From an uncultured delta proteobacterium (GTDB lineage: Bacteria > Myxococcota > Myxococcia > Myxococcales > Anaeromyxobacteraceae), in the NCBI GenBank assembly GCA_963814585.1, contig CAWFDF010000003.1:64001-128000 (forward strand): a stretch of 64,000 nucleotides of DNA. Reading direction: 5' to 3'. Shown here piece by piece: positions 27,001 to 36,000 of the stretch. Position numbers: made by a program. The stretch's first letter is position 1. Every line of letters starts with the position of its first letter.

Positions 27001-30000
27001 CGGCCGGGCCCGGGATCGCGGCGCGCCTCTCGTCCGGCGCGGCCTCGTCGCCGGACCCGGCGCCCTCCAGCACCTCGGGCGGGAGGTCCTCCGGCTGGAT
27101 GGTCTGCCCCTGGCAGACGGTGGCGGCGAACTCGAGCGCGTTCTCCAGCTCGCGGACGTTGCCCGGCCACGGGTGGGAGAGCAGGACCCTCACCGCCTCG
27201 GGCGAGAAGCGCAGGGCCCGGCCGGTGCGCGCGCCGGCCTTGCCGAGCAGCAGCCGGGCGATGGGCTCGATGTCCTCCCGCCGGTCGCGCAGGCGCGGCA
27301 CCTCGATGGGGAAGACGCGCAGCCGGTAGTAGAGGTCCTCGCGGAACTGGCCGTCGGCCACCGCCTTGCGCAGGTTCCGGTTGGTGGCGGCGATGATCCG
27401 GGCGTTGGTCCGGCGGGACTGGCTGTCGCCCACCCGCTCGAAGGTGTGCTCCTGCAGGACGCGCAGCAGCTTGACCTGGAGGTGGAGGGGCACGTCGCCG
27501 ACCTCGTCGAGGAAGAGCGTGCCGTCGTTGGCGGTCTCGAAGCGCCCGGCCCGATCCTTCACCGCGCCGGTGAAGGCGCCGCGGACGTGGCCGAAGAGCT
27601 CGCTCTCCAGCAGCTCGCCCGGCAGGGCGGCGGCGTTGACCGCCACGAACGGGCCGCTCCGGCGCGGAGAGTGGGCGTGGATGATGCGGGCCATGACCTC
27701 CTTGCCCGTGCCGCTGTCGCCGGTGATCAGGACCGTCGACTCGCTCTGCTGCAAGGTGTCGATGAGCCGGAAGACCCGCCCCATCGCCTTGGAGCGGCCG
27801 ATCAGGCCGAAGCCGCCGATGGGACCGCTGGCCTCCTCGGTGGCCTCGTCGGCGGGGCGCAGCACCACCAGGTAGCGGGCCTCCGGGTCGCACACCCCGA
27901 GGCGATCCCGCAGCAGCGGCGCGGCAGACACCGACATGAGCCGGGCCGGACCCTCCGGGCCCTGGAGCACGGCCCGCCAGCCCTCCCGCTTCTCGCCGGC
28001 CAGCAGCGCCAGCCGCAGCGGGCCCTCGGCGCCGAAGAGCTCCGGACCGAGCAGGGCCTCCACCGGGTGGTCTCGCGCGGCGGCCGCGGCGACCGGTCCG
28101 AGGAGCGTGTCGAGCAGCTCCGAGGCGTAGCGGACGCGGAACTGGCCGTCGAGCGCCATGCAGACCCGCCCCAGCGAGCCGAAGGCGGCGTTGACGGCCG
28201 CGAAGGCCCGCTCGTGGTCGGTGGCGTCGGCGGCGCATGCCGGGGTGGATGCTGACCGGGAGGCGGAGTCCGCGGCGGCGAGGTCGGTGGTCACGTTTCA
28301 CGCTCCCTGGCACGTCATGTCTCGTCCATTTGAGACGAAATGTGCCAGACGGGGTTCGGAATTCGCTCAACTGTTTGAATTCACTGGGTTCAATTGCCGG
28401 GCACGCGCCGAGCAATGCTCCTGTAGCGAGAAACGAGCCGGACCGCGGGCACTGGAATGGAACACGAGGACGAGACATGGCCGAAGGGACGACCCCCCCG
28501 AAGAAGAAGAGCGCCTGGCTGGTGGGCGCGGTGCTGCTCCTCGTCGTGCTCGGCGGCGTCTCCCTGGCGCGGGCGCTGCGGGGCGCCCCGGTCGTCGAGA
28601 CCCGCGCCGCCGGCTTCTCACGCAAGGTGCGGCCCCACTTCGATCACGCCCCGGTGATCAGCGGCCCGTTCGCGACCCCCCAGGCCGTGACGCACCGCTG
28701 CCTGGAGTGCCACCCGAAGGCGGCCGAGGTGATGAGGTCCTCGCACTTCCAGTGGCTGGGCGAGGAGGTCGAGGTGCTGGGCCACGCCGGGAAGACCCGC
28801 ATCGGCAAGAAGAACGTCATCAACAACTTCTGCATCGCCACCGCCGGCAACGAGCGGTCCTGCATGAAGTGCCACGCCGGGTACGGCTGGCTCGACGCCA
28901 GCTTCGACTTCAAGAACCCCGACAACGTCGACTGCCTGGTCTGCCACGAGGGGACCAACGGCTACGTGAAGGGCGTGGGCGGCATCCCCACCAAGGAGAC
29001 CGACCTGGTGGCCGCGGCCCGCTCGGTCGGCACGCCGCGCCGGGAGAACTGCCTCGGCTGCCACGCCTACGGCGGCGGCGGCCAGGCGGTGAAGCACGGC
29101 GACCTCGACTCCTCGCTGGCGCACCCCTTCGAGGAGGAGGACGTCCACATCGGCCGGCACCAGTTCCTCTGCGTCGACTGCCACCAGGCGCCGGACCACC
29201 AGATCCAGGGGCGGGCCTTCTCGGTCAGCGTGGAGGACTCGCACGGCGTGGCCTGCACCGACTGCCACCGCGTGCCGGAGCACCGGGACGAGCGGCTCAA
29301 CAGGCACCTGGCCGCCGTGGCCTGCCAGACCTGCCACATCCCCGACTACGCCGGGAAGATCCCCACCAAGGCCACCTGGGACTGGAGCAAGGCCGGCGAC
29401 AGGAACCGGCCCGAGGATCCGCACCGCTACCTCAAGATCAAGGGCGAGTTCTCCTACGAGCAGGACGCGCAGCCGCAGTATCGCTGGTTCAACGGCACGG
29501 TGGGGCGCTACCTGCTGGGCGACAAGATCGACCCGAAGCAGGTGACCGTCCTCAACCCGCCGCAGGGCACCATCGCCGACAAGAAGGCCCGCATCTGGCC
29601 GTTCAAGATCCACCACGCCAGGCAGCCCTATGACGCCGGCCACGACTACCTCTTCCCACCGGTCACCGGCGGGCCCGGCGGCTACTGGACCACCTTCGAC
29701 TGGGACAGCGCCTTCCGGCTGGGCGCCGCGGCGTCGAACATCGCCTACAGCGGCAAGTTCGGCTTCGCGCCGACCGACATGTACTGGCCGCTCTCCCACA
29801 TGGTGGCGCCCAAGGAGAAGGCCCTGGCCTGCACCGACTGCCACGGCGATCGCCCGCGCCTCGACTGGAAGGCGCTGGGCTACGCCGGAGACCCCATCAA
29901 GACCGGAGGCCGCCCGTGAAGCGCCCGTCCCTCCTCCTCCTGCTGGCGCTGGCCGCCGCGCCCGGGGCCCGGGCCCAGCAGGCCGTCAACCCCATCCACC

Positions 30001-33000: not shown

Positions 33001-36000
33001 CATGGGCGTGGGCTTCGTGCTGGGCGGCTTCTGCCCCGGCACCACGCTGGTGGCCACCGCCACCCTCAAGATCGACGGCATGCTGTTCCTGCTGGGCGCG
33101 CTCGTCGGGGTCTGGCTCTTCGGCGAGACGGTGGGCAGCTACGAGACCTTCTTCATCTCCTCCAACCTGGGGCGCTTCACGCTACCCGAGTGGCTGGGCC
33201 TGCCGCTGGGCGTGACCGTGCTGCTGGTGGTGGTCATGGCGCTGCTGCTCTTCTGGGGCGGCGAGCTGGCCGAGCAGGTCTTCGGCCGCGGCCGGCGCTG
33301 GGCCGAGGTCTCGCTGCGGCCCAGCCGGCCGCTGACGCTGGTGGGGGCCGGCCTGCTGCTGGCGAGCGTGGTGGTGATGGCCAAGGGCCAGCCCACCCCG
33401 GCGCAGAAGTTCGACCTGCTCGGCCCCGAGGCGCGGCGCCCCGTGGAGGAGCGCGGCGTCTTCGTCCACCCGGCCGAGGTGGTGGCGCTCAAGGACGACG
33501 TCAGCGTGCGGGTCGACATCCTCGACCTCCGCGACGAGCACGACTTCAACCTGTTCCACCTGGGCGGGTCCCGCCGCGTCGACGCGGCGGCGCTGCTGAA
33601 GGCAGGCCAGCTCCAGGAGCTGCTGGCGCAGCCCGGCAGCGCGGTGACCTTCCTGGTCGGCACCGGGGAGGCCCAGGCCCTGGCCACCTGGAAGGAGCTC
33701 AAGGCCCAGGGCGTCGGCAACCTCTACGTCATCGAGGGCGGCATCGACCACTGGCTCGAGCTCTACCCGGCCCCCTCCTGCGTGGCCGAGCGGGTCGCGT
33801 CCAACGACGCCGGCCCGGCCGGCTGGCGCTTCGCCTACGCCACCGGCGACAACCTGCCGTCCGCCTGGCCGGAGCTGCAGAGCTCCCGCGGCTTCCGCTC
33901 GCCCTGCCAGCTGGCCGTCTCCACCGCGGAGGGGCACGAGGGCGGCCACGGGGGGGTGGCCTGGCCCACCTACCAGTTCACCCGCAAGGTGAAGCTGCAG
34001 AGCAAGGCGGCCGTGAAGGGCGGGTGCGGGTAGGCGCTCCGTGCCCCGGGCCCTTCGTGGCGCCACTCACCTGGCCCGGGCCCTGCTGCGGCGCACGCGG
34101 CCTGGCTGCGAGGGGCGCCGTCACGCCAGCAGCGCCTCGACCGCCTTGACGATGGCGCCGGATCCGATCTGGCCGCCGGTGTGGCGCGGCGCCGCCTCGG
34201 CGCCGCCGCGGAAGAAGAGGAGCGTGGGGCTGCCGAGGACGCCGAGCTCGGTGGCCAGCTCCCGGTTCCCCTGCCGGAAGACCTTCACGAAGCGGGCTCG
34301 GCCGGCCAGCGCGGCCGCCGCCGCCTCGAGGCGCGGGGCCAGCGCCTCGCAGGGTGGGCACTCGGAGGAGTAGAAGTCGACGACGACCGGCTCCCCGGCG
34401 TCGAGGACCTCGCGCTGCCAGTCAGCGGCCTGGATCTCCTTCACGTTGGCGGCCATGGCGGCTCCGGGTACGGGGCACCGTCGCAGCCCAGGAGGCGCGG
34501 CGGGGCGGTGCGGGACAGGGTGCGGAGGCCCCGGAGGGCCTCCGCGGTGCTTCAGTCGTGGCAGCCCGAGACCAGCCGGGAGGCCTTGGCACAGCACTGC
34601 GCCACCTGCTCCGGGGCGCAGCAACCGGCCTTCACCTTCGTCAACAGCTTCATGGCAACTCCTTCGTCAAGCGGCGATCTGCTTCTCCAGCTTCGTCTTC
34701 AGCTTCCGCGCCGCATCGCAGTCCTCGCACGGCGCATCGGGCTTCCTGGCGTGCACCTGGCACGTCGCCAGGCAGTTGCCCAGCGACTGGACCATGATGC
34801 GGAGCTCCTTCGCCGAGAAGTCGATGCCGATCGCAGTGTTGGCACTCATCGCGTCCCTCCGAGGCCGGCATCGTAGCGCCCGCCTGGCCACCCCCAGGGT
34901 GTTCCTTGGGGGTTGCGCCAGTTGGCCGCTCCCTCCTTCTGGGAGCCAGGAGAGGCCGCCAGGGTTCGGCCGCCGAACCGCCTGGCCCGGCCCTGGCTCC
35001 CAGGGGGCAGAGGACACATGGGATTTCTCGACAAGCTCTTCGGCCCCAGGACCCCGAGGGTCCAGCCCGTCCACGTCACCGACGAGAACTTCATCGACGA
35101 GGTGGCGCGCTCGACGCTGCCGGTGGTGCTCGACGTCTGGAGCCCGGGGTGCGGTCCCTGCGCCATGCTGGAGCCGATCGTCATGGACCTGGCCACCGAC
35201 TACCAGGGGCGGGTCCGGGTCGCCGAGATGAACGCCGCCGAGGCCGTGGAGTACGCCGCCCGGCTCGGGGTGATGGGCACTCCCACCGTCCTCTTCCTCA
35301 GAGGCGGGCGCGAGGTGCACCGGGTGGCCGGCTTCGTCGGCTCGCGCTACCTGCGCGAGGTGGTGGAGGCGGAGCTGCTGGGCGAGAGCCCGGCGGCCTG
35401 AGCCGCTCCGCGCTGGCGGGGAGTTGGAACCTGCCCGGTCTCCAGATGGTGGCGCCCTGCCGCGCGCCCCCAATGTCCACGAGCCGACCCGCCCGGTCCA
35501 GGCCGGTCACCAGGCCGGCGGGCTAGACTCGGGCGGCTGGCGGTCGAGCCTGGGGAGGAACCACATGGACACGTCCGAGAGTGACCTCCTCCGCCACCCG
35601 CTCAGCCTGGCTGGCGCCGCCCTCGCCACCGTCTGCGGGTCCCTGGTGGCCGTGTTCTTCGTCGCTTCGATGGCCGGCTACGAAGGGAACCCCTACCAGG
35701 GAATGGTGGTCTTCGTCGTCGGCCCCTCGCTGATGGTGGTCGGGCTGCTGCTCGTCCCTCTGGGCGCCTGGCGCGAGCGTCGCCGCCTGGTCCGCCTGGC
35801 GGCCAGCGGCGGCGTCGAGTCGCCGCTCCCGGTCGTCGACCTCAACTCCCCGCGCACCCGGAAGCTCGGCCTGGCCTTCCTCGCGCTCACCACCGTCAAC
35901 CTGCTGCTGCTCGCGGCCGCCTCGTACAAGGGGCTGGAGGTCATGGACTCCTCTGCCTTCTGCGGCTCATGCCACTCCGTCATGGACCCCGAGGCCTCGG

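Follow-up and report, generated by a model that had tools for sequence, protein, structure and literature searches.

An octahaem OTR-family cytochrome encoded with a split YeeE channel and a C-terminal cysteine arm may act on arm-held sulfur

We analysed a window of 64,000 nucleotides from an uncultured member of the Anaeromyxobacteraceae. Four genes lie on the + strand between positions 28477 and 34033: g00110 (28477..29919) encodes a 480-aa octahaem cytochrome of the OTR family; g00111 (29916..32171) encodes 751 aa, and its start overlaps the g00110 stop; g00112 (32174..32698; 174 aa) is the C-terminal half of YeeE; and g00113 (32711..34033; 440 aa) combines a YeeE N-half, a rhodanese fold and a cysteine arm. 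These positions and the strand agree with a preliminary description of the locus, and profile searches reproduced its domain calls, namely Cytochrome_cB at 298-457, Ni_hydr_CYTB at 547-737, Sulf_transp model positions 177-308 in g00112 and 4-193 in g00113, and Rhodanese at 254-350. The C-terminal cysteine tail of g00113 had been overlooked. The four-gene operon is real and is kept in at least nine phyla; a description of the module was not found in our literature searches. A structure of OTR has been available since 2004 but, to our knowledge, no physiological role is established.

Based on profile scores, g00110 belongs to the OTR family (523.5 bits with TIGR04315, cut-off 375). It carries eight CXXCH motifs and an N-terminal hydrophobic export segment, and it matches Shewanella OTR (1sp3) over residues 57-476 (phmmer E 5e-135). 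At the site read as Asp150 in 1SP3, to which we ascribe a functional role there, the g00110 clade mostly has Asn or Gln (96/131). Lys111 and Cys119, by an eye count, correspond in Shewanella OTR to the Lys that ligates haem 2 and to a Cys close to it (1SP3 positions 56 and 64), and both are invariant among 52 aligned homologues. This Lys ligand and its neighbouring Cys are named in the available text of bioRxiv 10.1101/2023.04.20.537704.

Residues ~50-490 of g00111 form a seven-haem domain that is a paralogue of OTR (hhalign to OTR, probability 98.3, E 2e-14). The best Foldseek match of the model is 1sp3 (E 1.3e-4), and structure comparison gave VIA Z values of 9.7 to 1sp3 and 14.7 to FdnI. 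Seven CXXCH motifs are found in 120 of 121 full-length heptahaem domains, and the OTR Lys/Cys motif in none of the 121. Residues ~500-740 correspond to a five-helix di-haem cytochrome b of the FdnI/HyaC/PhsC type with invariant His555, His590, His703 and His717; Ni_hydr_CYTB (PF01292) scores above its cut-off, the best NCBIfam match, PhsC, reaches 97 bits (cut-off 204), and TIGR04314 gives 17 bits (cut-off 250). A cytochrome b of the FdnI/PhsC type suits low-potential couples. Judged from its sequence and model, g00111 is a putatively non-catalytic, duplicated OTR fused to such a cytochrome b. The earlier label "CbcL-like" is inaccurate in detail for this protein, whose c domain groups with OTR in hhalign, Foldseek and structure comparison: g00111 has seven haems in ~440 residues, an OTR fold and five helices, whereas CbcL is described, in the available text of PMC9129911, as having a nonahaem domain of ~250 residues and six helices.

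The last two genes together cover PF04143 with one conserved cysteine apiece, as in PmpAB-type YeeE/YedE proteins. In the PmpA-like g00112, Cys135 of the RGCTSG motif is equivalent to YeeE Cys293 and is conserved in 78/78 aligned rows. The membrane part of g00113 (32711..33385, + strand) consists of a PmpB-like YeeE N-half with a linker helix and one extra helix, giving six transmembrane helices in the AlphaFold model. Its Cys108, in GGFCPG, is equivalent to YeeE Cys91 (76/76 rows), and the site of Cys22 is occupied by Gly or Ala. Thus, both channel cysteines reported as needed by S. thermophila YeeE in the available portions of PMC7449682 and PMC11582611 are retained. The pair was also compared with the thiosulfate importer TsuA, by single chain, three cysteines, adjoining TsuB/YeeD and model cut-off. 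This assignment was rejected: the chain is split, Cys22 is missing, NF052577 scores 42 vs 400 bits, and no TusA/YeeD gene lies within the operon, with three located elsewhere in the genome.

The rhodanese-fold domain of g00113 (33386..33950, + strand) is supported by PF00581 (32.8 vs 22.2 bits), by profile alignment to solved rhodaneses and by Foldseek. Its active-site loop starts with Ser, Gly, Asp or Ala and not Cys in the 40 loop variants listed, which agrees with the catalytic cysteine being absent, as first described. The accompanying suggestion that the domain may only bind or regulate is not supported: an invariant C-terminal Cys sits on a flexible tail. This basic, flexible arm (33970..34033, + strand) ends in Gly-Gly-Cys-Gly-stop, with the cysteine at position 439, and the last seven residues have pLDDT <50 in the AlphaFold model. 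GGCG ends 70 of 75 complete homologues and GCGG or GCGA three more; the tail Cys is the only conserved cysteine outside the channel (75/76 rows). With a profile that includes the tail, arm-type motifs end 129 of the 150 best matches in a 50%-identity library; the background in the present genome is 10 such endings among 13,997 stop-to-stop ORFs with a length of 150 aa or more. In 41 of the 150, the domain stands alone directly after a basic-hydrophobic N terminus that resembles a signal anchor. The arm domain is predicted to be periplasmic because six helices precede it, its stand-alone homologues are signal-anchored, and the YeeE N terminus lies outside according to the available part of PMC7449682. 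Additionally, one relative with selA has an in-frame TGA at the tail Cys codon, and Sec forms are listed for YeeE and TIGR04315 proteins (PMC13188914). These probable Sec forms of the tail and channel cysteines point to redox or nucleophilic use. g00113 is not SoxY, as PF13501 matched neither this protein nor the genome; it does have a SoxY-style flexible C-terminal GGC arm, predicted to lie outside the membrane. We propose that the Cys439 arm is a sulfur carrier.

Divergent from the operon lies a gene for a sigma-54-dependent activator with AAA+ and Fis HTH domains by Pfam (26828..28294, - strand; start codon provisional). Three cysteines of its N-terminal sensor region, Cys20, Cys45 and Cys135, are kept in 14-15 of 17 aligned rows, and homologues adjoin the module in 12 of 23 searched loci and in two more (L088, L091). 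A candidate sigma-54 -24/-12 promoter, GGCACG-N6-GCA (28400..28414, + strand), is located ~65 nt 5' of the OTR start. The motif occurs in 11 of 13 aligned upstream regions and was not picked up by a strict-consensus scan allowing one mismatch. The activator probably regulates the operon.

To assess linkage in reverse, we used 123 loci in which 6.5 kb or more of sequence precedes the rhodanese-tail domain. The set is biased, because g00113 or the tail domain served as the query (12 loci came via an OTR search), and seven are contigs fetched twice. OTR and the YeeE C-half each occur in 122 of these loci, the heptahaem domain in 120 and the cytochrome b in 119. A less biased sample of 20 regions, chosen for spread around Myxococcota OTRs above cut-off, contains the YeeE pair in 12 and the complete module in seven, with neither YeeE nor a recognisable arm at eight. 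Among 20 gammaproteobacterial OTR regions, YeeE is present in only one, and no arm or YeeE was seen at 13. Therefore, the OTR-YeeE lock claimed previously holds for the OTR clade of g00110 but not for the family as a whole, and OTR can be encoded without an arm. The module is common: of 59 genomes from the host family, the Anaeromyxobacteraceae, 27 have the arm domain, as do 10 of 96 genomes of one Chloroflexota class. The module is also carried by a cultured strain, Anaeromyxobacter oryzae Red232. In the host family, sirohaem reductases are missing from 15/27 genomes with the arm domain vs 5/32 others; no such link is apparent in the Chloroflexota class (9/10 vs 71/86).

Cysteine arms also accompany OTR on other scaffolds. 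A DUF302 protein with a Gly-rich tail adjoins proteobacterial OTRs; 79 of 80 end in GC, and OTR lies directly downstream in all 74 loci with at least 800 nt. These OTRs form a separate clade, profile searches found no YeeE within 6 kb, and the hosts are sulfur oxidisers, e.g. Sulfuricella, Thiobacillus, Gallionella and Sedimenticola; the direction of the reaction may therefore differ by clade. Similarly, SoxY-S3 adjoins otr in lucinid symbionts, as described in the available text of PMC11237559. Furthermore, the present genome contains a second YeeE and a GGGCL-tailed protein beside a molybdoenzyme, an arrangement kept in 13/13 genomes with the tailed protein; judged from sequence, this second unit would serve a type II molybdoenzyme.

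Collectively, these results support a dedicated, quinone-linked sulfur module, as proposed previously, and suggest that its OTR may act on sulfur held by the arm instead of on free tetrathionate. In our model, the di-haem cytochrome b and the seven-haem wire would form the electron path that joins menaquinol to the catalytic haem of OTR. The sulfur intermediate would be bound to the GGCG arm, either as a cysteine persulfide or as an S-thiosulfonate, and the arm would swing to and fro, reaching the OTR active site on one side and the PmpAB-like channel, at its outer mouth, on the other. Through this channel, sulfane sulfur or sulfide would cross the membrane. The direction is most likely reductive: a low-potential sulfur oxyanion, which may be sulfite or else thiosulfate or a polythionate reacting through its sulfane part, would be turned into arm-bound sulfane sulfur and imported. 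In Shewanella, otr deletion gave a slight rise in sulfite and no change in tetrathionate use (PMC12949373), which fits this model. We give an even chance to the core of this model, in which quinol-coupled OTR makes or converts arm-bound sulfur and the split YeeE moves sulfur across the membrane. A carrier-bound substrate would explain the weak activity of OTR in assays with free substrates, the arm domain being the missing reagent. If the model is right, otr genes in metagenomes would not be markers of tetrathionate respiration.

The flow could instead be outward or oxidative. The arm would then be loaded with sulfane sulfur that YeeE exports from the cytoplasm; OTR would either use this sulfur as an electron sink, forming sulfide, or oxidise arm-bound sulfur and reduce menaquinone in an energy-conserving loop, like SoxCD on SoxYZ. 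Cytochromes b of the FdnI/HyaC type, the fold to which structure comparison assigns g00111, normally carry electrons from a periplasmic dehydrogenase to quinone. The sulfur-oxidising hosts of the DUF302 clade and the resemblance of the arm to SoxY, an oxidative carrier (available text of PMC11237559), fit the same direction. We nevertheless regard it as unlikely: the genome (91.7% complete) shows neither SoxY nor a sirohaem reductase and thus no known pathway of sulfur oxidation that the module could supply, the characterised YeeE and SoxT proteins are importers in the available accounts (PMC7449682, PMC11582611), and the described OTR activities of note are all reductive (PMC12949373). A role in maturation appears quite unlikely. 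Here, channel and arm would give sulfur to mature or reactivate an enzyme (a persulfidated OTR Cys, or the sulfido ligand of the molybdoenzyme), and OTR would act on a nitrogen oxide, e.g. nitrite or hydroxylamine. That purified OTRs are chiefly nitrite and hydroxylamine reductases in vitro (PMC12949373), that one channel-plus-arm pair accompanies two unrelated catalysts, and that many OTRs have no such partners are consistent with it, but the genome already has NrfA, purified Shewanella OTR is active (PMC12949373), and the Cys-bearing ArsR or sigma-54 regulators of these loci would fit sulfur sensing better.

The preliminary description held that OTR turns free tetrathionate into thiosulfate with quinol electrons and that the YeeE pair imports the product. 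OTR does reduce tetrathionate in vitro, one sediment microcosm showed a 36-fold rise in otr mRNA after tetrathionate (PMC8528874, available text), YeeE imports thiosulfate (PMC7449682, available text), and a host with no detected PAPS or sirohaem reductase would gain from its uptake. However, in a deletion study of 2026, loss of otr in Shewanella ANA-3 left tetrathionate respiration unchanged, the in vitro activity is very low (PMC12949373, section 4.1), and growth tests with Caldithrix abyssi, which has otr, gave no support for the predicted tetrathionate respiration (PMC5317091). Moreover, an invariant periplasmic Cys arm would be left unexplained. This couple is given as +198 mV in the available text of PMC8528874; on general bioenergetic grounds, serving it with a cytochrome b of the FdnI type would be wasteful of proton motive force. 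We consider this reading improbable. A selenium or tellurium oxyanion unit is highly improbable: YedE-type proteins carry selenium in some organisms (PMC11582611) and the host has selA, but the weak matches to selenium YedE models score 17-43 bits vs cut-offs of 200-350, none of the flanking genes examined is a selenium gene, and Sec in proteins reflects catalysis, not substrate.

A broader and more doubtful extension of the carrier model is that OTR here would be a periplasmic, sirohaem-free counterpart of DsrAB/DsrC, reducing sulfite onto the arm, with import of the sulfane sulfur by the YeeE pair; that YeeE-plus-arm would be a plug-in for several unrelated periplasmic redox enzymes, here OTR and a type II molybdoenzyme; and that the whole OTR family might act on carrier-bound sulfur with three arm scaffolds (pseudo-rhodanese, DUF302 and SoxY-S3). 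If true, anaerobes without PAPS or sirohaem reductases would be able to assimilate or respire sulfur oxyanions by a new route.

DsrAB, a cytoplasmic sirohaem enzyme, reduces sulfite onto the C-terminal Cys arm of DsrC, a two-Cys carrier; its likeness to the OTR module is a functional analogy only, without homology. Compared with Shewanella oneidensis OTR (1SP3), g00110 shares the full-length match, eight CXXCH motifs, the haem-2 Lys and the nearby Cys, but it belongs to a separate clade that has a heptahaem/cytochrome b partner, a split YeeE and an arm of its own. CbcL of Geobacter sulfurreducens, which serves low-potential acceptors (available text of PMC9129911), likewise fuses a multihaem c domain to a di-haem cytochrome b. 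MmcA of Methanosarcina acetivorans is a seven-haem OTR relative in which the Lys-ligated catalytic site is gone and which functions as a conduit for electrons (bioRxiv 10.1101/2023.04.20.537704, available text); MmcA lost the haem-2 motif, whereas g00111 is without haem 1 and the Lys segment and is fused to cytochrome b. PmpA/PmpB share with g00112 and g00113 the two halves, the Cys91 and Cys293 equivalents and the lack of Cys22 (PMC11582611). Unlike in PmpA/PmpB and TsuA/TsuB, the N-half of g00113 still has the linker helix and is extended by one more helix, by a rhodanese fold and by a Cys arm predicted on the outer face; TsuB, in contrast, is a cytoplasmic TusA-type partner. SoxYZ with SoxAX/SoxCD and SoxT1A likewise combines a periplasmic C-terminal GGC arm, haem c enzymes and a YeeE-family channel (available text of PMC11237559 and PMC11582611), but the arm of g00113 is carried on a membrane-tethered pseudo-rhodanese and not a SoxY fold, and the enzyme of the module is an OTR with a direct quinone link.

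The four genes g00110 (28477-29919), g00111 (29916-32171), g00112 (32174-32698) and g00113 (32711-34033) form one row on the forward strand, and their junctions are overlaps or gaps of no more than 12 nt. Domain searches returned the calls of the preliminary description for all four. The close relatives of this locus are from Anaeromyxobacteraceae. A sigma-54 activator gene is divergently oriented upstream of the operon, and a -24/-12 motif (28400-28414) occurs there in 11 of 13 aligned relatives; a scan with the strict sigma-54 consensus gave no match at the operon. Chloroflexota loci instead carry at the operon head an ArsR with one conserved Cys (29/30 aligned rows). 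Additionally, the window holds, just past the operon and convergent with it, a thioredoxin gene whose product has a CPPC motif (34121-34456, reverse strand), a downstream multihaem cytochrome with a NapC/NirT-like region (35424-36965, forward strand), and a methyltransferase-radical SAM domain fusion (24452-26539, reverse strand) near a FadL-type outer-membrane gene and a metallo-beta-lactamase-fold gene.

Searches with g00113 and with its tail domain gathered module loci from Myxococcota, Chloroflexota, Planctomycetota, Gemmatimonadota, Desulfobacterota, Actinomycetota, Acidobacteriota, Calditrichota, KSB1 and two Gammaproteobacteria. In the 123 tail-domain loci whose upstream flank reached 6.5 kb or more (7 fetched twice), the OTR and the YeeE C-terminal half were each present in 122, the heptahaem domain in 120 and cytochrome b in 119. 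The parts are variously fused or split, and the OTR is fused to the heptahaem domain in two loci. These two, L039 and L074, encode the fusion as a 15-haem protein; no cytochrome b was found in either, and an MtrB/PioB-type porin gene lies upstream of the fusion in L074. Collectively, the module is real and conserved. The search that starts from OTR is less flattering for the linkage than that from g00113 or the tail domain. OTR scored over the cut-off in 47 of 301 Myxococcota genomes, and 20 regions chosen from these for spread comprised 7 with the full module, 5 with the YeeE pair and no heptahaem domain, and 8 without YeeE. Among 20 gammaproteobacterial OTR regions, cytochrome b followed downstream in all and YeeE was present in one. 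In a quick-mode, midpoint-rooted tree, which can be read for clustering and not for the order of events, module-bearing OTRs gather in a single branch with an SH-aLRT of 96, and the proteobacterial OTRs stand separately in a branch with 98; the tree holds 102 of 227 sequences after removal of near-duplicates and short-flank loci, and its row L028, a locus with two OTRs, is wrongly labelled. Reduced modules that keep OTR and the YeeE pair but lack the heptahaem/cytochrome b protein occur in L088, L091 and L092, where the arm tail ends in GLCS or GLCG, and L088 and L091 share the sigma-54 activator. Genomes of the host family (G060, G134, G166, G237 and other members) also commonly carry further families of OTR-like paralogues, which score under the TIGR04315 cut-off at about 150 and 290-320 bits.

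Judged by its sequence, g00110 is a true OTR: it matches the Shewanella structure 1SP3 over nearly its full length (E 5e-135) and keeps two residues of OTR, the haem-2 Lys and a Cys close to it. The label "CbcL-like", previously given to g00111, proved wrong, as its c domain is OTR-like with seven CXXCH, whereas CbcL is described with nine haems within residues 30-279 and six helices (PMC9129911). In a profile alignment, OTR haems 2-7 each pair with a haem of this c domain (probability 98.3), and 1SP3 is the best Foldseek match of the g00111 model; in the VIA comparison, residues 68-497 lie on 1SP3 residues 36-434 (Z 9.7, rmsd 5.4, 246 residues). Seven CXXCH are present in 120 of 121 full-length heptahaem domains, and the Lys/Cys motif of OTR in none of the 121. 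The OTR-like fold, the seven CXXCH and the missing motif together argue that the c domain is a catalytically dead OTR duplicate serving as a wire, the same change from OTR relative to wire as is described for MmcA (bioRxiv 10.1101/2023.04.20.537704). The membrane domain consists of five helices, four of its His are invariant, and its best match is FdnI (Z 14.7, rmsd 3.2, 188 residues). The top NCBIfam match of g00111, below the cut-off, is PhsC, for which five helices and two b haems are described (PMC12949373).

Together, g00112 and g00113 are a YeeE pair of the PmpAB type. The equivalents of YeeE Cys293 in g00112 (78/78 rows) and Cys91 in g00113 (76/76 rows) are the two Cys reported as required by S. 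thermophila YeeE (PMC7449682), and no Cys22 equivalent is present in the aligned rows of the pair. The split form of YeeE is already known (PMC11582611). The rhodanese domain of g00113 lacks the catalytic Cys, and the C terminus of the protein is a basic tail closing in Gly-Gly-Cys-Gly, which the preliminary description had not mentioned. Among 75 complete homologues, 70 end in GGCG, 3 in a close variant, and 2 are read into another ending; 10 of 13,997 long ORFs of the source genome end in the scored motif, a pattern that excludes GGCL. The predicted model shows disorder at the final residues and places six membrane helices ahead of the rhodanese domain. Since the YeeE N terminus is reported to be outside (PMC7449682), the rhodanese-arm domain is predicted to lie outside the membrane. 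Stand-alone arm-domain proteins (41 of the best 150 library matches, 193-225 aa) give an independent sign of this location, with a short basic-hydrophobic N terminus ahead of the domain. Foldseek with the g00113 model returned only rhodanese-type folds among the top rows listed, none at E 0.001, and a complex prediction of OTR (residues 50-480) with the rhodanese-arm domain gave a score of 0.11 and a mark of 0.32, values that speak neither for nor against contact. Furthermore, an in-frame TGA replaces the arm Cys codon in one relative, whose selA is full (L225:9058-9650), and the channel Cys codon in another, whose selA is in pieces (L066:9001-10236; L066/L180); from in-frame TGA and selA alone, these are probable selenoproteins. 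Both YeeE and TIGR04315 are listed with Sec forms in a review (PMC13188914).

A second sulfur module lies on contig C16 of the source genome (about 37074-44500, corresponding to L306:575-7996), in the order ArsR-rhodanese, exported tandem rhodanese, full-length YeeE, GGGCL-ended protein and molybdoenzyme of the type II DMSO-reductase family. The tailed protein is 156 aa long and signal-anchored, with three Cys in all; it had no NCBIfam match and looks rhodanese-like by eye. Such a protein occurs in 13 of 201 Myxococcota genomes, and tail, YeeE and molybdoenzyme keep their order in all 13; the molybdoenzyme alpha subunit is split across two frames in the source genome and whole in the 12 relatives. 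Arms are also seen on further scaffolds. In 6 of the 20 gammaproteobacterial regions, otr is preceded by a gene for a DUF302 protein whose N terminus is hydrophobic and whose Gly-rich tail has a terminal Cys. A reciprocal search yielded 80 DUF302 loci, the query locus among them; the protein closes with GC in 79, OTR follows directly in 74/74 with at least 800 nt downstream, and a YeeE profile search found none within 6 kb. In these loci (L131:4201-4740, L226-L305), otr and cytochrome b come directly after the DUF302 gene; the hosts, which are often sulfur oxidisers, belong to the Gamma-, Beta- and Alphaproteobacteria, and a TlpA-like redoxin then follows in 4 of the first 6. One paper mentions DUF302 genes solely inside sox operons (PMC5248467), and a divergent SoxY is reported to adjoin otr in lucinid symbionts (PMC11237559). 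A looser search for Cys-ended proteins at 16 OTR loci without DUF302 revealed no convincing shared carrier. Another arm scaffold is possibly present at L134:5377-10466, where the genes for OTR and cytochrome b stand in a row with those for a small exported cytochrome c that ends in AGCS, a full-length YeeE and a triple rhodanese.

In the simplest account, the arm, with its proposed sulfur load, would ferry sulfur between OTR and the YeeE channel, and OTR would meanwhile trade electrons with quinone. No arm or channel is visible at 13 of the 20 OTR loci from Gammaproteobacteria or at 8 of the 20 picked from Myxococcota, which weakens a general OTR-arm claim. Cytochromes b of the FdnI type carry charge across the membrane, and PhsABC carries out a driven reduction of a low-potential acceptor. 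By analogy, the cytochrome b of g00111 would suit driven low-potential reduction or energy-conserving oxidation, not an acceptor at +198 mV. OTR haem potentials are reported over a range similar to that of MmcA, -100 to -450 mV (bioRxiv 10.1101/2023.04.20.537704). Reduction with inward sulfur transfer is the favoured direction; less probable alternatives are outward transfer, a maturation role of channel and arm, a free-tetrathionate reading and a selenium reading of the module. Free tetrathionate, the substrate put forward earlier, is unlikely: deletion of otr in Shewanella ANA-3 is reported to have left tetrathionate use unchanged, with sulfite slightly raised, and in vitro activity with it to be very low (PMC12949373), and the tetrathionate respiration predicted for Caldithrix, which has otr, found no support in growth tests (PMC5317091), although otr mRNA rose 36-fold on day 8 after tetrathionate addition to a sediment microcosm (p 0.049; PMC8528874), where tetrathionate may have yielded other sulfur species too.

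In the source genome (91.7% complete), NrfA is present, and neither SoxY nor a PAPS or sirohaem reductase was seen. In a test of assimilation, PF01077, which also takes in nitrite reductases and DsrAB, is absent from 15 of 27 module-bearing versus 5 of 32 module-less host-family genomes (Fisher p 0.002), and from 8 of 18 versus 3 of 30 with one genus left out, these genomes being kin and hence not independent. A Chloroflexota class gave no PF01077 contrast between genomes with and without the module.

In the literature covered, the main texts of largely open papers, neither the module nor the rhodanese-GGCG arm nor the DUF302-otr link was found described, and the module is apparently unpublished. 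Each part is a member of a known family, and the module offers a sharp test for the long-open OTR question. Its logic resembles that of SoxYZ with SoxAX and SoxT.
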